Assembly: GCA_043799405.1 (NCBI GenBank)
Contig: JAZDNT010000003.1
Coordinates: 335,461 to 399,460 of the forward strand
DNA length: 64,000 nucleotides
DNA from: Candidatus Kerfeldbacteria bacterium
GTDB taxonomy: Bacteria; Patescibacteriota; Patescibacteriia; SBBC01
Direction of reading: 5' to 3'
Shown here one piece after another: positions 7,759 through 17,797 of the stretch (position 1 is the first letter of the stretch; each line of letters begins with the position of its first letter). Below the pieces are notes generated by a model. That model saw nothing but the letters and a program-made list of their open reading frames with translations. It was not told the DNA's origin and did no database searches. The translations under genes and the position numbers were made by a program.

Positions 7759-7844
7759 GGGCGAGTGGCGAAATGGCATACGCACTGGCTTCAGGAGCCA
7801 GCGATCGCAAGATCATGGAGGTTCGACTCCTCTCTCGCCCACCA
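7759..7844 (+). tRNA. tRNA-Leu(CAG), type II, CCA encoded
   Basis: Acceptor GGGCGAG/CTCGCCC, anticodon arm CTGGC-TTCAGGA-GCCAG, long variable arm, T-loop TTCGACT, terminal ACCA. Very similar to bacterial tRNA-Leu(CAG). Confidence 0.9.
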
Positions 7845-8702
7845 GAGCGAAGAAGCCGTTGCTTCCGTGAACAGGGAGAACGGCTTGTTCGCTGTGTACA
7901 GCGCTTTTCTCCCGGTGACCCGATAGTTCGACCCGACCACCTCCACGATCTGCCGTTGCTGAACCCGCGTGCCGTCACGGAAGACCTGCGGGGCGTGCAG
8001 CGAGAAGGCGAGGGCCTGGTCCACGCGCTCTAGCAGCGCCTCCGGCGACTCACCGGGTCGGTCGAGCCGTAGCTGCAGCTGCGCGCGGCGGTCCTGAAGC
8101 GCCGTCTTGCGACGCTCGTAGGTCGCGTCGTCGATCGAACCTCGGAGCCGCAGGGTGAGAAGCGTCTCTTCTTCGGCAGCTGCCTGCAGGACGGCATTCT
8201 CCAGCGATTCCCTGGCAGTGCGAAGTTGGCCGACCTCGCCCTCGAGCGAGTGTTTGAGGTTGTCGCGGATCCACCCGGCCGCTTCGGGTGTGAGGCACAT
8301 CCGCTTTAAGTCCTGGGCCAGCTGCTCACGGAGGGTCTCCTCAGGCAACGCCGGCTCGGAGCAGGTCTCGCCGATACGCCTACGGTGACAGCGGTAGTAG
8401 ACGTAGCGCTTGCCGCTCGGCTTGACGTGCGCTTCGGCGACTAACGCCCGGCCGCACGAGGCGCAGTGAAGAAGCCCCGAGAAGGTGAAGTCGTGGTGCA
8501 CCGGCCGGGCTCGACTTGGCCGACCGAGCAACTCCTGCGCGCGTTCGAACTCCTCGGGCGCGACCATCGGCACGTGAGCGCCCTTGTAGGCCTCGCCGCT
8601 GACGTCGGCGTCCTCCTCGAGGAGATGCGCAACGATGGCAGTTGGGTCCGCCAGTGGCGCCGCGCCGCCATCGAGTACGCCAAGTAGCACCTGGTTGTCC
8701 AC
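7791..8702 (-). pseudogene. Large serine recombinase, C-terminal fragment only (zinc beta-ribbon plus coiled coil); catalytic resolvase domain missing
   Basis: FSGLLHCASCGRALVAEAH...KRYVYYRCHRR zinc-ribbon and a long coiled-coil tail. No N-terminal catalytic Ser domain in any upstream frame. The last ~18 codons read through the complement of tRNA-Leu. Confidence 0.7.
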
Positions 8703-8905: not shown

Positions 8906-10959
8906 TCAGTCGAGGACTACGACCTTCACGGTGGCCGTGTGAAGGGTGGACCGAAACGCGATGAAGTACACGCCGCGTGCCACCCGTCCTCCACGGGGGC
9001 TGTTTCGGTTCCAGGAAAGAACGTGCTCACCGACGCCGTACTGCCCTTCGGCGAACGTAGCCACCTCGCGCCCGCTCACGTCGAAGATCGAGATGCTGAC
9101 CCGATCAGCGACCGGCAGGGTGAAGCTGATGTTGACGCTCGAGATCGCCGGATTCGGTGCCGCCCACAGCCTGAATGAAGAGTTGGTGATTGGCGGTGGT
9201 CCATCATCCGGAGGGGCGGGCCGCGCCGAGGAGCCGCCGCCCCAGCCTCCGAGCCAGCCGCTGCTGGAAGGAGAGAATCCCGAGCCGGAACTGGTGGCCT
9301 CGAACCATTGCCCATAGGCTGGCTCATACAGCACGACGTCGCACTTGCCGTCGCCAGTGAAGTCTCCGGAGAGCGCCCGGTATGCGGTTGCATTCGCCCC
9401 CCATGGTCCCATCCAAGCAGACGATGCCGGGGTGAAGGCGCTGCCAGTCGAGGTGGCGACGAACCATCCGCCAGTTGCCATCTCGTACAGGCAGACGTCG
9501 TAGAGCCCGTCGCCGGAAAAGTCGCCGGTCAGGTTCTGGTAGGCGGTAGCGTTGGCTCCCCAGCTTCCGAGCCACCCACTCCCTGAAGGCGAAAAGCTCG
9601 ACCCAGTGCTGCTGGCTTCGAACCACTGACCGTACGCTGGCTCGTACAACCCGACGTCCCAGGCTGCTCCGCTGTTGAACTTGCCAGTGATAGCCCGGTA
9701 CGCAGTGGCATTGGCTCCCCAGTTGGCAAGCCAGCCTTGCGACGTGGGCGTAAACGCTGAACCGTCCGACGTCGCCACGAACCACTGTCCGTAGGCAGGT
9801 TCATACAAACCCACATCGCACTTTCCGTCTCCGTTGAAATCACCGGAGATTGCCTTGTACGCGGTGGCGTTTGCGCCCCAGCCACCAAGCCACGCCGTTC
9901 CGGCAGGCACGAACGCTGAACCGTTCGACGTCGCCACAAACCACCCGCCGGTCGCGGCTTCGTACAAGCATACGTCGCACTTGCCGTCCCCGTTGAAGTC
10001 GCCGGTCAGAGGTTGGTAGGCGGTGAGGTTTGCTCCCCAGCTCCCGAGCCATCCGCTTCCCGAAGGCGCGAAACTTGAACCCGAACTGGTTGCTTCAAAC
10101 CATTGCCCGTTGGCTGGCTCGTACAGCACGACGTCGCACTTGCCGTCGCCAGTGAAGTCTCCGGCGAGCGGCACATAGCGGTCCACGGCGCTGATTTGGA
10201 ATGCTGCTCCCTGCCAGTCTTCCAGGAGTCCTCCGGTTGTGTGGTACGGACGGAAGTACACCCACGTCGTCCCTGACGCGGCATCTGAAGGAACCTTACC
10301 TGTGAAGGTGAATGTGGCCGTTCCTTCGGGCGCAACGCTTGTGAACCCGACGGCGTGTGGTTCTGGATGTAGCTGATCGCGTCAACGAAGCCGTATGTGG
10401 GAAGCGTACCGATGTCGTTGTCCCAGTTCGCTGGAATGGGAGCCCGCCCAAGGTGGCTTGGCAAGCTAATGCTAGGATGGACCCCAAAGTGAAGATGGTT
10501 ACCATCTGACCAATGCCCGATTGTGCCGAACTGAACTCCAGCGGTAACCGTACTATTGACTTGAACAGAAGTTCTTACGTGTCCGTAAAAAGCGAGAAAC
10601 TGTGTGTCGTCAGAGAGGGTGTGCTTCACGACAACGCATACATTGCAATAGCCTTGGTCGTTAGGGCAGCACTGAGTGGAGCCGCCATTGTCACAAGAGT
10701 TGCTCCATCCACCGTCGCTGATGTAGTACACTACTCCATCAGCAATCGCATAGACAGGATCGCCATAGTCCGCAGCGATATCCTTACCGAGGTGGTAGTA
10801 GTTGGGGAAGTACGCAGGCGGCACAGCGAGCCAACCCGCATAGTTGCCAAGGCTACTGGTTCCAGTTGGGTAGTAGAAACCTGTTGAGGTTTGAGCCAAC
10901 CCGAAAGCGTTCGAGCAGACAAGCATGAACAACAACACGAACAACAGCACCCTTGCCAT
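8906..10959 (-). pseudogene. Secreted M23 peptidase - 7x FG-GAP-like repeat - T9SS-type C-terminal domain protein, split by one frameshift
   Basis: Track ORF 10006..10959 has a signal peptide and M23 motifs (YHLGKDIAADYGDPVYAIADG, HLHFGVHP). Track ORF 8906..10261 has seven GDFxGDGKCDV...WF repeats and a tail resembling the T9SS type A sorting or FlgD-Ig domain. The second frame stays open upstream to 10371, so a single 1-nt shift joins them. Confidence 0.7.
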
Positions 10960-11710: not shown

Positions 11711-12198
11711 GGTAAGGAGAGGATCAATAATAGATGTAGCTACCTACACCATGGCACGTGCACGGGCGGCGTCAAGAGGGTGTTGAGAGAGAGAGTGTGG
11801 GGCGTGCGGAGCCGGCCATTGGGGCGACGCGCGAGCGGGGTGGCTGGTATTGCACAAGGGGGCGCGCTGCGTGCGCGTGGACCCGCCTACAGTCAGGAGG
11901 CTTTGAGGGCTACGCTTGGTGGTGTTGTCGCACCTCATGCCTCGCGGTGATCCCCGCCCCCTGACAAGGAGGCCTTCCCATGAAGGCCGATCAGCACATC
12001 CGCACGGTGGAAACCCACGACCGCGCCGGGAACGTCGACCACCAGCCGCCTGCCACGTGTGGTTCTCAGCTGCCTGCGTGTGATCCAGTTACTTGACGAC
12101 GACAGCAACACGGTGATCCTCGACACGGCCCGGCAGCAGCTGCGCGGGCTGCAGGGAGCATCGGACGATGCTAGTCCGACTGGCCCGGCTGGGCTACA

Positions 12199-13392
12199 AT
12201 GCAGACATCCATGACTAAACAAGAAGCATACGTCGAGCCAGCGATTCTACGGTGGGCACGAGAGAAGTCCTCGCTGCCTTCTTCTTTGGTCGCCAAGCGT
12301 GTCGGCGTGCCTCCCGAGCGTCTCGACGAGTGGGAGCAGGGCAAGAGCAGACCAACGGTCCGCCAGACGCGCGTCCTCGCCCGCATCTATGGTCACCTCG
12401 CGCTGGCTGTGTTCTATCTACCAGAGCCGCCACGTGACTTCACTCCTCTGAAGGACTTCCGTCGGTTGGCAACCGCAACACCGCAATCGATCTCGCCGGA
12501 GCTGCTCTTTGAGTATCGTTCGGCTCAGGACCGGAGGGAAATCGCGCTAAGCCTGTTTGAAGAGCTCAGAGAAGAGCCACCAACCTTCACTCTGACTGCG
12601 CACGTCGGCGAGAACGTCGCTAGCGTCGCTGCCAGAATCCGGAGTTCCCTCGAGGTCTCGTACGAAACCCAGAAGCGCTGGCACACCAACAACGAAGCCT
12701 TCAACGCCTGGCGTGCTTCACTAGAAGGGGCGGGAGTACTCGTCTTTCAAGCAGTCGGCATCGCTGTAAGGGAGATGCGCGGGCTATCGATTAGCGATCG
12801 CCCGCTTCCTGCTGTGGTGGTCAACCGCAAGGACGCTTATGCCGGGCGGATCTTCAGCGCGCTGCATGAAGTTGCGCACATCATGTTGCGTGGGGGTGGG
12901 GTGTGCGACATGCGTGACGATCGCCGATTGCCCCCAGATGAACTCGCAATCGAGATGTTCTGCAACGCTGTGGCAGGAGAGACCATCGTCCCAAGCGAGA
13001 CGCTAAGCCACGAGCGGATTGTTGCCGCGCACTCCAATCTGGAGTGGACCGACGATGAACTGGCTCGGCTTGCCCAGATCTACTCCACCAGCAAGGAGGT
13101 TGTGCTCCGACGATTGCTGTCCATGCGCCGCACGACGGATGCATTCTACAGACGCAAGCGGGAACAGTTCATCAGGGAATTGGAGGATCAGGAGCGATCT
13201 CGCGGCAAGAAGACGAAGCCCGGCTTCCTGACTCCGGACGTTGAGGTTGTGAGCCAGACGGGGAAGGGTTTCGTCAGGCTGACCTTGGAGGCGTTTCGCC
13301 AAGGACGCATCACGGCAAGCACACTCTCCGACTACTTGGGCGTGCGACTGAAGCACATCCCGTCGATTGAGGAAATGGTCCAAACCCGATGA
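12199..13392 (+). CDS. XRE-family HTH fused to an ImmA/IrrE-type zinc metallopeptidase
   Basis: N-terminal HTH (LVAKRVGVPPERLDEWEQGKSRPTVRQTRVLARIY) and an HExxH motif (LHEVAHIML). The real start may be the ATG at 12211, just after a TACAAT box at 12194-12199. Confidence 0.75.
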   Translation: MQTSMTKQEAYVEPAILRWAREKSSLPSSLVAKRVGVPPERLDEWEQGKSRPTVRQTRVLARIYGHLALAVFYLPEPPRDFTPLKDFRRLATATPQSISPELLFEYRSAQDRREIALSLFEELREEPPTFTLTAHVGENVASVAARIRSSLEVSYETQKRWHTNNEAFNAWRASLEGAGVLVFQAVGIAVREMRGLSISDRPLPAVVVNRKDAYAGRIFSALHEVAHIMLRGGGVCDMRDDRRLPPDELAIEMFCNAVAGETIVPSETLSHERIVAAHSNLEWTDDELARLAQIYSTSKEVVLRRLLSMRRTTDAFYRRKREQFIRELEDQERSRGKKTKPGFLTPDVEVVSQTGKGFVRLTLEAFRQGRITASTLSDYLGVRLKHIPSIEEMVQTR

Positions 13393-13886
13393 GCGAAGTA
13401 GCCCCCACTCCGAAATACAGCATGGACTCCAGCGCGCTGATCTACGCGTGGGGCTATGCCTACCCGCTCGAGGCATTCGGAGGGTTCTGGGAGAACCTTG
13501 AGGGGCTCGGTCGTGAAGGGCGACTCTTGGTCTCGGAAGAGGTGCTCGAGGAAGTCCAGCGCAAGGACGACGGGCTACACAAGTGGTTGAAACAGAGAGA
13601 TAGCTTAGTTGCGAGCCATACAGGTGAAGTGCAGCTTGCGGTCAAGGAGATCCTGAAGTCGCATCGGTTGTTGCTGAATGCGGGAACCGGCAAGTCTGGC
13701 GGGGATCCGTTTGTCGTAGCCGTTGCGCGCGTTCACGGTTGTTGCGTGGTGTCGGAGGAACAAGTAAGCGATTCCCCTAAGCGAATAAAGATTCCCAACG
13801 TATGCCGCGACTACCGCGTGAAGTGTATCCCGCTAGTGAGGATGATTCTGGCCGAGGGGTGGCGCTTCGGTGGTCAGGGGACGTGA
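13389..13886 (+). CDS. DUF4411-like (PIN-like nuclease fold) protein, coupled partner of the ImmA gene
   Basis: ATGA start/stop overlap with the upstream gene. YSMDSSALI N-terminus and GGDPFVVAVARVHGCCVVSEE motif, as I recall for DUF4411. Confidence 0.6.
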   Translation: MSEVAPTPKYSMDSSALIYAWGYAYPLEAFGGFWENLEGLGREGRLLVSEEVLEEVQRKDDGLHKWLKQRDSLVASHTGEVQLAVKEILKSHRLLLNAGTGKSGGDPFVVAVARVHGCCVVSEEQVSDSPKRIKIPNVCRDYRVKCIPLVRMILAEGWRFGGQGT

Positions 13887-15617
13887 TTAACCCGCATCAA
13901 TCTTGTCCGAAGCCGAGCGAGTAGAGCCGGCCAACCAGCCGAGAACTTCAGGCACCGGATCGGGAATTGCGAGGCTTGCATCAGAGGCCATGAGCCGGGC
14001 TCGAGTAGGCTTCCCCATGTTGGGACGCTTCTGACACTCAGCTTGGTAGGTCGTCTCGCCAATCGTCCGTCTGAGATGATCTTCAAAGTTGCGAGATAGT
14101 CGCCAGACCCGCACGGTGCCGTCCGGTCGCTCGAGGCGCTGAAGCTCTGCGTTGAACGTCTTCTCTTCGTCGCGTTTGCCTTCAAAGTCCGACGAGTCTG
14201 AGTCGAACACAATCCCCACAGGGATTCCGAACGACGACGCGATCGCTCCGAACTCAGGCAAATTGCGTTTGCCGCCAACCTCCACGATTGTCGCGCCTTC
14301 GCGATCGAGATCGAGTCCGAGACGCTGTGCGTACTCCGGAAAGGCCAGCTTCTCAGTATCGCCCTCGACGAAGAGCACCTTGGTAGCGAAGAACAACTCA
14401 TTCCGCTCAGGGTCCAGCTCCTTCAAGAGCTTCTCTCTGCGCCTCGAATCGGTCGGCAGGGCAGAAGAGGTGACAGTCGTACCGTTCTTTCCGTTTCGGA
14501 AGAGCACGACCTCGTGATAGTCGGGGACGGCAACGAAGTGAGGCGAATGCGTGGCGTAGATGACCTGGTTGGTTTGGCCAATCTCACGGAGGGTACGGTA
14601 GAGCGACCGCTGCATCTGTGGGTGGAGGAACATCTCCGGTTCTTCGATCAGGATGATCGCGCCTTTCCTTCGGTGCTGCTCAAAGGCCCTGAGGATTGCG
14701 AGAACGATGGCGTTCTGGATACCTTCGCCAAGTTCGGTAGCACTGATCGTGAACTCGCCCTCACGCACCCGAAGGTCGAGAGACTTGTAGAAGTCCATCG
14801 ACTCAAACGGGGAAAAGAAGAAATCAAGCCTTTCCGAGTCTGTCGCAGGATCAAACCCCAACTGTCGAAGTGCATTGTCCTTGATGGTCTTCTCGAGCAA
14901 CTCAAGATCGGTCGTGCGGAGCACGTCGAGAACGTCCTTCATCAGCGATTGAAACCGTTCAGCCCTGGAGGTCTCAATCGGTATGCCGTCAGGACCGGGC
15001 ACGGCAATCGTGCTCTTGGGATCATGTAGAGCACGGTCGATGTCCTCGAGCAGTGGCCGCAGGAGGGAGAAGCGCGCTCCCGGAAGGTGTTCCTTGAGAC
15101 TCCGATTAGTCCCGATGTACACAAGAGGAACTGCATCCCTGACCTCGCTCGGAATGCCGACGACCGGCTCGTACTGATATGCGACGCCCTTCGTCGGCTT
15201 CTTCCCGACGATCAGCGGCTTTGCGCCCTTTGCGTCGCGGCATTCTTGCTCCAATCGCCGTTCGCCCTTCTGGGCACCAATCTTGTAGCGGGTGTACTTG
15301 AACGAGACGCTGTGGATCGCGGCTGGAGGAGTCCCGTAGATCTTCCCGTAGGACACGGGGGAGTCGAACGTAAGCACGATCTCGATGTCGCGGGCGGAAT
15401 CACGCAGGTACACGTCGTCTTCCGAGAACGAGGACGCACTGACCCAATCACGACCCATGACACGTTGAATCGCGTGCAGAAGGTTGCTCTTGCCAGAGTT
15501 GTTTGGGCCGACGAGCGCACAGACCTGTGGCAAGTCGAGATCGACGTTTCGGAGGGAACGGAATCCCTTGATGGTGACGTGCGAGAGCTTCATGCCCATA
15601 GCACACCACCAAATCAC
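13887..15617 (-). CDS. OLD-family ATP-dependent nuclease (ABC-type ATPase plus Toprim), stand-alone
   Basis: Walker A GPNNSGKS, Walker B region ILIEEPEMFLHP, Toprim VLFVEGDTEKLAF and FDSDS. Its stop abuts the DUF4411 stop (convergent). The start is probably at MKLSHVTIKGF near 15593. Confidence 0.8.
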   Translation of the reverse strand: MIWWCAMGMKLSHVTIKGFRSLRNVDLDLPQVCALVGPNNSGKSNLLHAIQRVMGRDWVSASSFSEDDVYLRDSARDIEIVLTFDSPVSYGKIYGTPPAAIHSVSFKYTRYKIGAQKGERRLEQECRDAKGAKPLIVGKKPTKGVAYQYEPVVGIPSEVRDAVPLVYIGTNRSLKEHLPGARFSLLRPLLEDIDRALHDPKSTIAVPGPDGIPIETSRAERFQSLMKDVLDVLRTTDLELLEKTIKDNALRQLGFDPATDSERLDFFFSPFESMDFYKSLDLRVREGEFTISATELGEGIQNAIVLAILRAFEQHRRKGAIILIEEPEMFLHPQMQRSLYRTLREIGQTNQVIYATHSPHFVAVPDYHEVVLFRNGKNGTTVTSSALPTDSRRREKLLKELDPERNELFFATKVLFVEGDTEKLAFPEYAQRLGLDLDREGATIVEVGGKRNLPEFGAIASSFGIPVGIVFDSDSSDFEGKRDEEKTFNAELQRLERPDGTVRVWRLSRNFEDHLRRTIGETTYQAECQKRPNMGKPTRARLMASDASLAIPDPVPEVLGWLAGSTRSASDKIDAG

Positions 15618-15790: not shown

Positions 15791-15821
15791 AGTTCGAACG
15801 TCCTCCGCCACGGTCCACCAA
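15791..15821 (+). repeat. Degenerate tRNA 3'-end-like fragment at the right edge of the GC-rich island
   Basis: AGTTCGAACGTCCTCCGCCACGGTCCACCAA. The last 12 nt (ACGGTCCACCAA) are identical to the 3' end of tRNA-Ala (15967-15978). Confidence 0.55.
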
Positions 15822-15901: not shown

Positions 15902-15977
15902 GGGCCGTTAGCTCAGCTGGTAGAGCGCTTCCATGGCATGGAAGAGGTCAGGAGTTCAAATCTCCTACGGTCCACCA
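15902..15977 (+). tRNA. tRNA-Ala(GGC), CCA encoded
   Basis: Acceptor GGGCCGT/ACGGTCC with the G3-U70 Ala identity pair, anticodon arm CTTCC-ATGGCAT-GGAAG, T-loop TTCAAAT. Confidence 0.9.
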
Positions 15978-16039
15978 ATGGCTTTTGCAGGCGGGGCGTT
16001 TCCATGCCTGTCCGCCAAAGCGTAGCGTCGGCGGAGCAC

Positions 16040-16077
16040 GGAAGAGGTGACCGGTTTGAGTCCGGTAGGGTCCACCA
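16040..16077 (+). repeat. Diverged copy of the 3' half of tRNA-Ala (anticodon-stem 3' strand to CCA)
   Basis: GGAAGAGGTGACCGGTTTGAGTCCGGTAGGGTCCACCA compared with the tRNA's GGAAGAGGTCAGGAGTTCAAATCTCCTACGGTCCACCA. The ends are conserved and the T-arm is replaced by a different but still paired stem. Confidence 0.7.
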
Positions 16078-16099
16078 AACATGGTAAAAAGAGGAATCA

Positions 16100-16570
16100 A
16101 TGACAGTGGATGATCTTAAAAGGTTCGTACGCAGTATTGTGGCCGAGGCGCGCCTATTAAACGCAGCACATACTTACGAACATGATGCGCCTGTCAATTA
16201 TGCATGCATTTTCACACAGAATTCAGCTATGTACGAGGAAATCGTAAAAGTTGCCCATCAACTCGGTCAAGTAGCTGAGAATACCTCGATGGGACCTGTT
16301 TTTCATATAGCTCCATTGTCTACTGACGCCGGCACGCTCCGACTTCTTAAAGTCAGGCGCCCAGATCTAAAGCGTTTGGAACGAGGTGATGCGGATTTTA
16401 CGGTATTTGACTATGATTCCTTCAAGAAGAAATGTCTCGGTAAATTTGGCTTCAGCCTTATCAAGCGCGAAAAAATGGAGATGATCGAACTAATCGACCC
16501 TTCGTTCAATGTTCTTGCCTACTACTCGCATCCTACACTCGCTGAAGTTCTCAAGCTGAAGAACGGGTAA
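16100..16570 (+). CDS. Hypothetical protein
   Basis: 156-aa ORF with backbone-like composition. I recognise no motif. Confidence 0.5.
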   Translation: MTVDDLKRFVRSIVAEARLLNAAHTYEHDAPVNYACIFTQNSAMYEEIVKVAHQLGQVAENTSMGPVFHIAPLSTDAGTLRLLKVRRPDLKRLERGDADFTVFDYDSFKKKCLGKFGFSLIKREKMEMIELIDPSFNVLAYYSHPTLAEVLKLKNG

Positions 16571-16695
16571 AACTTCAAGCGTATATTTGCATACGGTGTT
16601 TTCTAGCATCTGTTTTTTTAATAAGGGACAATATCAACGCATGCGCGGCGAATGTTGCATTCAGTACATGGTCATGATACTATATTACTAGTAAT

Positions 16696-16887
16696 ATGTT
16701 ATCAGAGCGCATCAAGAAATTCCGGAAAGAGCGCGAATATACGCAGGAACAGCTCGCAAAAGCTGCTCATATTACGTATGCAACGCTTATTAAGCTTGAA
16801 TCTGGCGTAAATACTAACCCAACCCTAAAAACCCTGAAACGGATATCGCGTGCGCTCAACGTTCCTATTACTAAACTGATCTCGTAA
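16696..16887 (+). CDS. XRE-family helix-turn-helix transcriptional regulator
   Basis: 63 aa. YTQEQLAKAAHITYATLIKLESGVNTNPTLKTLKRISRAL is a typical HTH_3 pattern. Confidence 0.8.
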   Translation: MLSERIKKFRKEREYTQEQLAKAAHITYATLIKLESGVNTNPTLKTLKRISRALNVPITKLIS

Positions 16888-16891
16888 CAAT

Positions 16892-17797
16892 ATGACCTGG
16901 TACTGGTATGCAATTTTCTCTGCAGTCCTGATCTCACTTGTCGGGCTTTTCCAGAAAAAAACACTTCAAAACGAACATTCGCTGCAATACGTCACGATAT
17001 TCAGAACGACGAATTTCCTGTTGTTCCTGCTGATTTTCGCTCCGACGCTCACGATAGGTACAACGAGCACGCAGTTCTTCTTCCTCGGGCTCACCGGTCT
17101 CATCGGCGCGACTGGCCAGCTGTTCGTAGCGCGTTCGCTTCGCGCGCTCGATATTTCGACGGTCATGCCGATCCTGGCGCTCGATCCGGCGCTTGTCGCC
17201 CTGCTCGCATTTGGCGTGCTTGGGGAAAAGTTAGCCGGCTTCAATATCGTTGGGATCGCATTCGTTCTCATCGGCGCATTCGTACTTGAATCTCACCGTA
17301 AGGAGGGCGACGGCCGATGGCGCGACATACTGCACTCTCCGAAACTGCTCGTCCGGCCATTCAGGCGCATGGCACAGGAACGCGGGGGCCGATCGATCAT
17401 CATCGCCCTTTTCGCCTACGCCGTGAGCGGGGTCATCGACCGCTTCCTCTTGAAACAGCTGAACGTTACGACCTACCTCTTCTACGTGTACCTCTTCGGC
17501 ACAACGCTCTTTCTTCTCCTCCTCCTCGCAACGAAACAGAAGGTCCAGCTGTTCCAGCAGGGAAACAGGCTCTTCTTCCCGACGATCATCATTGCGGCGG
17601 TCATGAGCCTCTTCGCGAACATCAGTCAGGCGAAAGCGACGAGCCTCGCCGCCGTTGGGCTCGTCATCGCCGTCAAGCGCGCATCGGTGCTCATCGACAT
17701 CATTCTCGGCGGCCGGCTGTTCCACGAACACCACATTGCGCAGAAGCTCCTAGCATCAGCGATCATCCTGCTCGGGCTGTACCTTATCGTCATATGA
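16892..17797 (+). CDS. EamA/DMT-family transporter
   Basis: 301 aa with about 10 predicted TM helices in two similar halves, which is the EamA-like arrangement. Confidence 0.65.
   Translation: MTWYWYAIFSAVLISLVGLFQKKTLQNEHSLQYVTIFRTTNFLLFLLIFAPTLTIGTTSTQFFFLGLTGLIGATGQLFVARSLRALDISTVMPILALDPALVALLAFGVLGEKLAGFNIVGIAFVLIGAFVLESHRKEGDGRWRDILHSPKLLVRPFRRMAQERGGRSIIIALFAYAVSGVIDRFLLKQLNVTTYLFYVYLFGTTLFLLLLLATKQKVQLFQQGNRLFFPTIIIAAVMSLFANISQAKATSLAAVGLVIAVKRASVLIDIILGGRLFHEHHIAQKLLASAIILLGLYLIVI

Follow-up and report, generated by a model that had tools for sequence, protein, structure and literature searches.

A predicted VapBC52-type toxin-antitoxin pair beside a putative class 1 OLD nuclease gene in Candidatus Kerfeldbacteria

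Three abutting genes were analysed in a 64,000-nucleotide stretch of DNA (hereafter the window; contig JAZDNT010000003.1, positions 335,461 to 399,460) from a metagenome-assembled genome of Candidatus Kerfeldbacteria, a lineage of the candidate phyla radiation (CPR). Their closest described relatives are the VapBC52 toxin-antitoxin system of Mycobacterium tuberculosis (Rv2515c/Rv2514c; PDB 9VZY and 9VZZ; Singh et al., Nucleic Acids Research, June 2026, PMC13273310) and the class 1 OLD nucleases. VapC52 is a PIN-fold tRNase that cuts anticodon or variable loops; it is growth-inhibitory and is neutralised through direct binding of the antitoxin (PMC13273310). The antitoxin, VapB52, is unusually large, with three domains; it binds a dimer of the toxin in a 1:2 ratio and contains an IrrE-type peptidase with zinc on H216, H220 and E245, blocked by C229 in a 'cysteine switch' like that of CapP (PMC13273310). 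Single-stranded DNA (ssDNA) causes VapB52 to cleave itself at, or close to, a conserved FR motif and so to lose its N-terminal domain, and release of the toxin is expected to follow (PMC13273310). Over-expressed VapC52 protects M. smegmatis against phage D29, and the M. tuberculosis locus contributes to copper tolerance and virulence (PMC13273310). The module composed of an ImmA-type protein and a DUF4411 protein had been predicted earlier by comparative genomics (Matelska et al. 2017, PMC5499597; NetFlax, PMC10440598), and ImmA-antitoxins in the ImmA/Rosmer zone of NetFlax are associated with PIN-like toxins (PMC10440598). Among the OLD nucleases, the Vc OLD of V. cholerae is a class 1 enzyme and a nickase that defends alone (PMC12392090).

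An earlier note on the window had described an XRE-ImmA protein, a DUF4411 protein and an OLD-family protein, had ascribed a defence or toxin-antitoxin character to their genes, and had proposed that the three form one co-inherited immunity locus and possibly a functional three-gene combination. All three open reading frames (ORFs) were found intact and in place (Table 1), the family assignments were correct by Pfam, and the motifs singled out earlier (HEVAH, GPNNSGKS, VEGDTE and FDSDS) were each present in the translations. The general character of the genes was likewise rightly judged. The favoured explanation, to which a probability of roughly 0.8 is assigned, is that the window holds two independent modules, a VapBC52-type pair and a class 1 OLD, each working as its characterised relatives do. 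Both modules are read here as horizontally acquired, and their adjacency as an incidental instance of ordinary defence-island juxtaposition.

The ImmA-DUF4411 gene pair

The product of the first gene matched chain A of PDB 9VZY from end to end (residues 12-396 against 2-389, E 3e-59, 36% identity). Pfam matched HTH_3/HTH_31 (residues 17-65) and Peptidase_M78 (residues 203-306), consistent with a plan comprising an N-terminal XRE helix-turn-helix (HTH) domain, a linker, a middle domain of the IrrE/ImmA zinc-peptidase type and, at the C terminus, a domain of helices. Residue roles were taken from PMC13273310. The zinc site is composed of H223-E224-V-A-H227 and E252, and Cys236 is the cysteine-switch residue; H223, H227, C236 and E252 align with H216, H220, C229 and E245 of VapB52, respectively. 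A DFRRL segment (F87-R88) aligned with the DFRRL of VapB52 in the linker between the N-terminal and middle domains (NTD-MD linker), and by analogy is the probable self-cleavage site of the window antitoxin. In an alignment of 40 antitoxin sequences D86, R88, H223, E224, H227, C236 and E252 were invariant, and F87 was at least 90% conserved. PADLOC returned a weak and partial match of the antitoxin to RmrA (best E 2.2e-10, 38 bits) and a match to capP (E 1e-5). A search for operator-like inverted repeats ahead of the antitoxin gene and of the OLD gene yielded none, only two short palindromes, neither evidently significant.

The approximately 490 bp that precede the antitoxin gene (11711-12198) contain no convincing gene. 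A 38-residue ORF at 11980-12096 lies within this interval behind a strong AAGGAGG Shine-Dalgarno sequence.

The product of the second gene matched the DUF4411 profile of Pfam over its full length (E 7e-35, profile positions 1-159 of 159) and aligned with chain D of PDB 9VZY (E 8e-19, 30% identity) and with the D6A mutant in 9VZZ (E 1e-17). Residue D13 aligned with D6 of VapC52, the aspartate mutated in 9VZZ. The acidic quartet comprises D13, E55, D106 and E124; among 61 sequences D106 and E124 were invariant, while D13 and E55 were at least 90% conserved. An AlphaFold2 model of the protein (pLDDT 79.8) retrieved only VapC/PIN toxins as its top Foldseek matches in the PDB, all with probability 1.00. 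The acids of the PIN active site, which the earlier note had suggested checking, are conserved in the alignment, and the modelled fold is that of a PIN domain. Relatives of the DUF4411 protein numbered 2770 by an exhaustive search of representatives versus 6 by a word-indexed search. No PADLOC model matched the protein at E <= 0.1, the release used (2023) containing no model for the DUF4411 toxin. The protein is predicted, by analogy, to be a VapC52-type toxin and a putative tRNase.

The two genes are coupled. The ATG of the toxin gene (13389-13391) shares letters with the TGA of the antitoxin gene (13390-13392), and direct reading of the sequence bore out the ATGA overlap reported previously. 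In the NCBI annotation the DUF4411 protein starts at Met12, with which the overlap would vanish. The start at 13389 is favoured since the alignments with homologues begin at query residues 9-10 and conservation of Tyr10 reaches at least 90%.

Since both proteins match the two chains of 9VZY over their full lengths, the functional residues are conserved and the toxin is modelled with a PIN fold, the pair is assigned, on sequence grounds, to the VapBC52-type type II toxin-antitoxin systems. Every published functional residue of VapBC52 is retained in the window proteins. The earlier statement that the module lacks experimental characterisation is outdated, as structures, tRNase activity, self-cleavage and an anti-phage effect have been reported for the homologous VapBC52 (PMC13273310). 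The FR motif, the cysteine switch, the zinc ligands and the PIN acids, described for the single characterised VapBC52 system, are conserved in relatives from many lineages of bacteria and archaea as well as on viral contigs, a breadth of conservation that supports ssDNA-triggered self-cleavage as a general mechanism.

By homology with the M. tuberculosis system, the N- and C-terminal domains of the antitoxin would bind a dimer of the DUF4411 PIN nuclease, presumably as a 1:2 complex, and hold the nuclease inactive, and the zinc-peptidase would be auto-inhibited by C236 sitting on the zinc. Displacement of C236 by ssDNA, originating from phage replication or DNA damage, may then free the peptidase to cut its own NTD-MD linker at DFRRL, upon which the complex would dissociate. 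The released PIN protein would act as a toxin by cleaving tRNAs in the anticodon or variable loop, leading to growth arrest or aborted infection; an anti-phage role in this host is likewise expected by homology.

An alternative is that the pair functions mainly as an addiction or stress module, for the stabilisation of a mobile element or the control of growth under DNA damage or metal stress, and not as a dedicated anti-phage system. The layout is the classic one of type II toxin-antitoxin systems with translational coupling, the M. tuberculosis locus aids copper tolerance and virulence (PMC13273310), related pairs often lie beside integrases or on prophage-like contigs, and the window itself contains a remnant integrase and att-like scars (see below). 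This alternative is nevertheless considered unlikely. The ssDNA trigger and the CapP-like cysteine switch are common to the phage sensor of CBASS (PMC13273310), and the RosmerTA systems, which also employ ImmA-antitoxins, are validated phage defences. Moreover, an addiction or stress role is compatible with phage defence and does not exclude the favoured explanation of two independently working modules.

The OLD gene

Pfam detected AAA_15, AAA_21 and OLD-like_TOPRIM (E 5e-20) in the product of the third gene, which joins an N-terminal ABC ATPase to a Toprim domain at the C terminus in one polypeptide. The best solved relative was the class 1 OLD of Thermus scotoductus (TsOLD; PDB 6P74, E 8e-58); the match to solved GajA was far weaker (E 3.5e-21), as were those to class 2 Toprim domains (approximately 1e-7). 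Residues were mapped through the 6P74 alignment, with roles from Schiltz et al. 2020 (PMC7049728). The ATPase residues are K35 (Walker A), E317 (Walker B), H324 (D loop) and H349 (H loop); those of the Toprim domain are E410, D464 and D466 for metal A and E414, N502 and E504 for metal B, with N502 standing in place of S478 of TsOLD. The ATPase and metal residues were invariant or at least 90% conserved in 40 homologues.

Among the PADLOC models GajA (1.5e-52) and Old (8.6e-52) scored alike. The OLD gene lies between the convergent DUF4411 gene and tRNA-Ala. No UvrD, reverse transcriptase or DUF4435 (AriB) domain was found by Pfam or PADLOC in the flanking ORFs, and Rfam detected tRNAs only in the window, with no retron non-coding RNA. 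Gabija (class 2) was rejected, the downstream neighbour being the convergent DUF4411 gene and not a GajB helicase, and retrons (class 3) and PARIS (class 4) were rejected for want of an adjacent reverse transcriptase or non-coding RNA and of AriB, respectively; the same three systems had been correctly set aside in the earlier note. The assignment made there to class 1 is upheld by the closeness to TsOLD, the intact residues and the lack of a partner gene. The sequence evidence supports a solitary, P2 Old-like class 1 protein. Such a protein would be a stand-alone ABC-ATPase/Toprim enzyme, probably dimeric, that by homology nicks or degrades invading DNA.

The length of 576 residues given previously corresponds to an ORF that does exist and extends to GTG 15617; the probable protein, however, has 568 residues. 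The start is most likely ATG 15593, favoured by the NCBI call and by family alignments that begin there.

The protein belongs to a subfamily with more than 100 relatives at 59-84% identity in distant phyla. Among 80 metagenomic loci of the subfamily, 19 have the OLD gene embedded in a type I restriction-modification (R-M) operon, identified by Pfam matches to N6_Mtase, Methylase_S and the type I R subunit (loci L098, L100, L101, L103-L105, L108, L110, L112, L136, L137, L141, L147, L153, L156, L164, L167, L173 and L176; also L011-L014). Most of these operons run hsdM-hsdS-OLD-hsdR, with the genes closely packed and all in one direction. The window OLD is not so placed. Apart from the type I R-M genes in the 19 loci, no conserved partner of OLD was found across the 80, and no paper was found in the literature on 'OLD family' genes embedded with hsdR. 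The location within type I R-M operons qualifies the textbook picture of class 1 OLDs as solitary genes, and this side observation is perhaps more useful than the main finding.

Genomic linkage of the pair and the OLD gene

The stop codon of the DUF4411 gene (TGA, 13884-13886) adjoins that of the OLD gene (TTA at 13887-13889, TAA on the minus strand), confirming by direct reading that the convergent genes have a spacer of zero. No terminator was predicted at the junction, in a scan for promoters and terminators whose counts were close to the shuffled expectation. The junction is read here as tight packing of convergent genes and not as design.

Linkage was evaluated from both sides. On the antitoxin side a VapB52-like alignment was used to sample 80 loci from 80 genomes, representing many bacterial phyla and methanogenic archaea, and a further 80 loci on viral contigs, and all six-frame ORFs were searched with hidden Markov models (HMMs). 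A DUF4411 ORF was directly downstream of the antitoxin gene in 79/80 genome loci and 77/80 viral loci (156/160 in total). In these searches no OLD gene was found within approximately 6-7 kb of the antitoxin gene in any of the 160 loci; one weak match, in locus L030, was to an AAA_21 ATPase fragment without Toprim. Nor was a third conserved neighbour of the pair found in the sampled loci. On the OLD side, neither a DUF4411 nor a VapB52-like protein was found near OLD in the 80 metagenomic loci (0/80), and no ImmA or DUF4411 gene was present at the loci of four distinct close homologues checked singly (P0002, 84% identity; P0005, 76%; P0008, 65%; P0017, 65%). Serine recombinases on both sides, a neighbouring integrase or a type I R-M operon form the surroundings of the latter. 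The closest, at 84% amino acid identity, sits in an element bounded by serine recombinases, and nucleotide similarity of its locus to the window (78.8%) is limited to positions 13924-15612, that is, to the OLD gene alone.

As a unit of two genes the ImmA-DUF4411 pair is tight and self-sufficient, and in no other contig was it seen adjacent to OLD, an outcome that the earlier note had itself named as contrary to its proposal. The absence of linkage in the 160 and 80 loci and the restriction of nucleotide similarity to the OLD gene indicate that the modules are independent, and the proposed co-inherited locus or three-gene combination was not borne out. Physical abutment within a defence region is no evidence of a functional unit.

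Pairs of VapB52-like and DUF4411 genes were common on IMG/VR contigs, with 119 confirmed matches, of which 80 loci were retained (L187-L266) and 77 of these were paired. Given this abundance on viral or prophage contigs, phages or prophages also carry the VapBC52-type module.

Several points weigh against the favoured explanation of two modules working as their relatives do. Identity to the M. tuberculosis proteins is just 36% and 30%, and the trigger and RNA targets may differ. In the study of the M. tuberculosis system, protection against phage came from over-expressing the toxin by itself and disappeared once the antitoxin was expressed alongside it (PMC13273310); even in the archetype, therefore, a defensive effect of both genes together has still to be demonstrated. 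The 2023 PADLOC release is without a model for the toxin and matches the antitoxin to RmrA weakly. Many of the sampled loci are short, with at least 1.8 kb downstream of the pair in 56/80 genome loci and at least 1.7 kb on at least one side in 61/80 OLD loci; this reduces the power somewhat but leaves the linkage result unambiguous. Finally, a rare conserved triad may occur in lineages outside the sample.

That the three genes constitute one functional system, in which ssDNA made by OLD triggers the antitoxin or convergent read-through couples expression, is highly improbable. The zero spacer and the lack of a predicted terminator between the convergent genes are in its favour, and cross-talk is biochemically conceivable given that VapB52 is activated by ssDNA (PMC13273310) and that OLDs nick and resect DNA (PMC7049728, PMC12392090). 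Incidental cooperation of the two modules in this cell, in which nicks or resected ssDNA generated by OLD on phage DNA flip the cysteine switch so that a DNA-targeting first line arms an RNA-targeting, abortive second, is accorded very little probability; the convergent layout with no spacer could also give mutual antisense control of both transcripts. Against a three-gene system, the adjacency was never seen in the sampled loci (0/160 and 0/80), the closest OLD homologues lie in unrelated settings (elements with serine recombinases, cassettes with integrases, operons for type I R-M), the homology shared with the nearest OLD locus ends at the gene borders, and the characterised relatives of each module work alone.

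Surroundings of the locus and relation to known systems

The features of the region are listed in Table 1. The region is bounded by tRNA genes, as the earlier note had stated; these are tRNA-Leu and tRNA-Ala. Its GC content is only slightly above the window mean. The serine-integrase remnant matches just the C-terminal portion of large enzymes of this type, and the 3' ends of its ORF and of tRNA-Leu overlap; it is probably the decayed integrase of an old mobile element and possibly marks the left end of that element. Three occurrences of the tRNA-Ala 3' end lie within 270 nucleotides, and the shared 10-mer GGTCCACCAA was found 3 times versus 0.11 expected. The repeats look like att-type scars of repeated integration and excision. 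Together, the integrase remnant and the repeated tRNA-Ala 3' ends make a past insertion of a mobile element plausible. No intact integrase or other element genes were found adjacent to the pair in the window, and the genes between the remnant and the pair encode an FG-GAP repeat protein, an M23 peptidase and a membrane protein. PADLOC, the use of which the earlier note had proposed, yielded no additional defence genes in the flanks of the three, a generic HTH aside, and the region is therefore not a rich defence island.

Table 1. Coordinates of features in the window (nt, nucleotides; minus sign, reverse strand).
Feature	Position	Strand	Size	Remarks
tRNA-Leu	7759-7844			ARAGORN, Rfam
Serine-integrase remnant	7791-8702	-	303 residues	Pfam Zn_ribbon_recom only; phrog_95 positions 334-561 of 651
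FG-GAP repeat protein	8906-10261	-		159-nt tandem repeat units, GC 0.63-0.67
Antitoxin ORF	12199-13392	+	397 residues	NCBI start at 12211 gives 393 residues
DUF4411 toxin ORF	13389-13886	+	165 residues	
Tail-to-tail junction TGA/TTA	13884-13889	none		Direct sequence reading
OLD ORF, mechanical call	13887-15617	-	576 residues	From GTG 15617
OLD gene, likely extent	13887-15593	-	568 residues	From ATG 15593; MKLSHV...
tRNA-Ala 3'-end copy	15804-15821		18 nt	Upstream of tRNA-Ala
tRNA-Ala(GGC)	15902-15977	+		ARAGORN, Rfam; 309 nt upstream of OLD start
tRNA-Ala 3' end	15961-15978			
tRNA-Ala 3'-end copy	16036-16078		43 nt	72% identical to T-arm and acceptor end; 58 nt downstream of tRNA-Ala
ORF past the tRNA fragment	16100-16570		156 residues	No Pfam, PADLOC or PHROG match
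XRE-family HTH protein	16696-16887		63 residues	Follows the 156-residue ORF

Two observations concern the neighbours. The FG-GAP repeat protein carries Por_Secre_tail, a C-terminal sorting domain of the type IX secretion system (T9SS) kind, which seems out of place in a CPR genome. Just past the tRNA fragment, positions 16001-17000 form a patch of low GC content (0.444 versus approximately 0.55) that includes the last two ORFs of Table 1 and may be a recently acquired small module.

A reading of the ImmA-like protein as an anti-repressor switch of a mobile element, of the ImmA/ImmR type, with DUF4411 as an accessory nuclease rather than a toxin, is highly improbable: the family is named after ImmA of ICEBs1, by which the HTH repressor ImmR is cleaved (PMC10440598), the protein itself has a fused HTH domain and the PHROG label of the family is 'transcriptional regulator', but intact element genes are missing beside the pair, the association with DUF4411 is near-obligate (156/160) and the homologous PIN protein inhibits growth, an effect that the antitoxin neutralises by binding it directly (PMC13273310).

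With the favoured explanation of two independent modules, the window contributes one CPR example, from Candidatus Kerfeldbacteria, to two known, experimentally characterised defence families, which is of limited direct value. The pair resembles VapBC52 of M. tuberculosis in the antitoxin-first order of two coupled genes, in the three-domain antitoxin with an HExxH + Glu zinc site, a cysteine switch and a DFRRL or 'FR' motif, and in the DUF4411 PIN toxin with the catalytic aspartate and the acidic quartet. It differs in the host, here a CPR bacterium and there an actinobacterium, and in that the disordered N-terminal extension of approximately 23 residues in VapB52 is missing from the window antitoxin.

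The pair is also mechanistically akin to RosmerTA (RmrT/RmrA; Millman et al. 2022), in which an antitoxin with an HTH and an ImmA-type zinc-peptidase is combined with a swappable toxin. Those Rosmer toxins that have been validated belong to other types, such as membrane-depolarising ones, and membership in RosmerTA was rejected, no RmrT model of PADLOC matching the DUF4411 protein. With CapP/CapH of CBASS the pair shares an IrrE-family peptidase and a cysteine-switch loop released by ssDNA; however, CapP cleaves a separate repressor, CapH, and so induces transcription, whereas in the window substrate and peptidase are predicted to reside on one polypeptide and the output would be the release of a toxin.

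The window OLD agrees with P2 Old, TsOLD and Vc OLD in being the product of a single gene that joins an ABC ATPase to a Toprim domain, in its similar length and in having no dedicated partner gene, and is distinguished from them by membership in a distinct, highly conserved subfamily with identities of at least 60% in many phyla. With GajA of Gabija it has in common the domain architecture, and the PADLOC GajA and Old models score comparably, but it lacks an adjoining GajB helicase and its similarity to GajA is far weaker than that to TsOLD.

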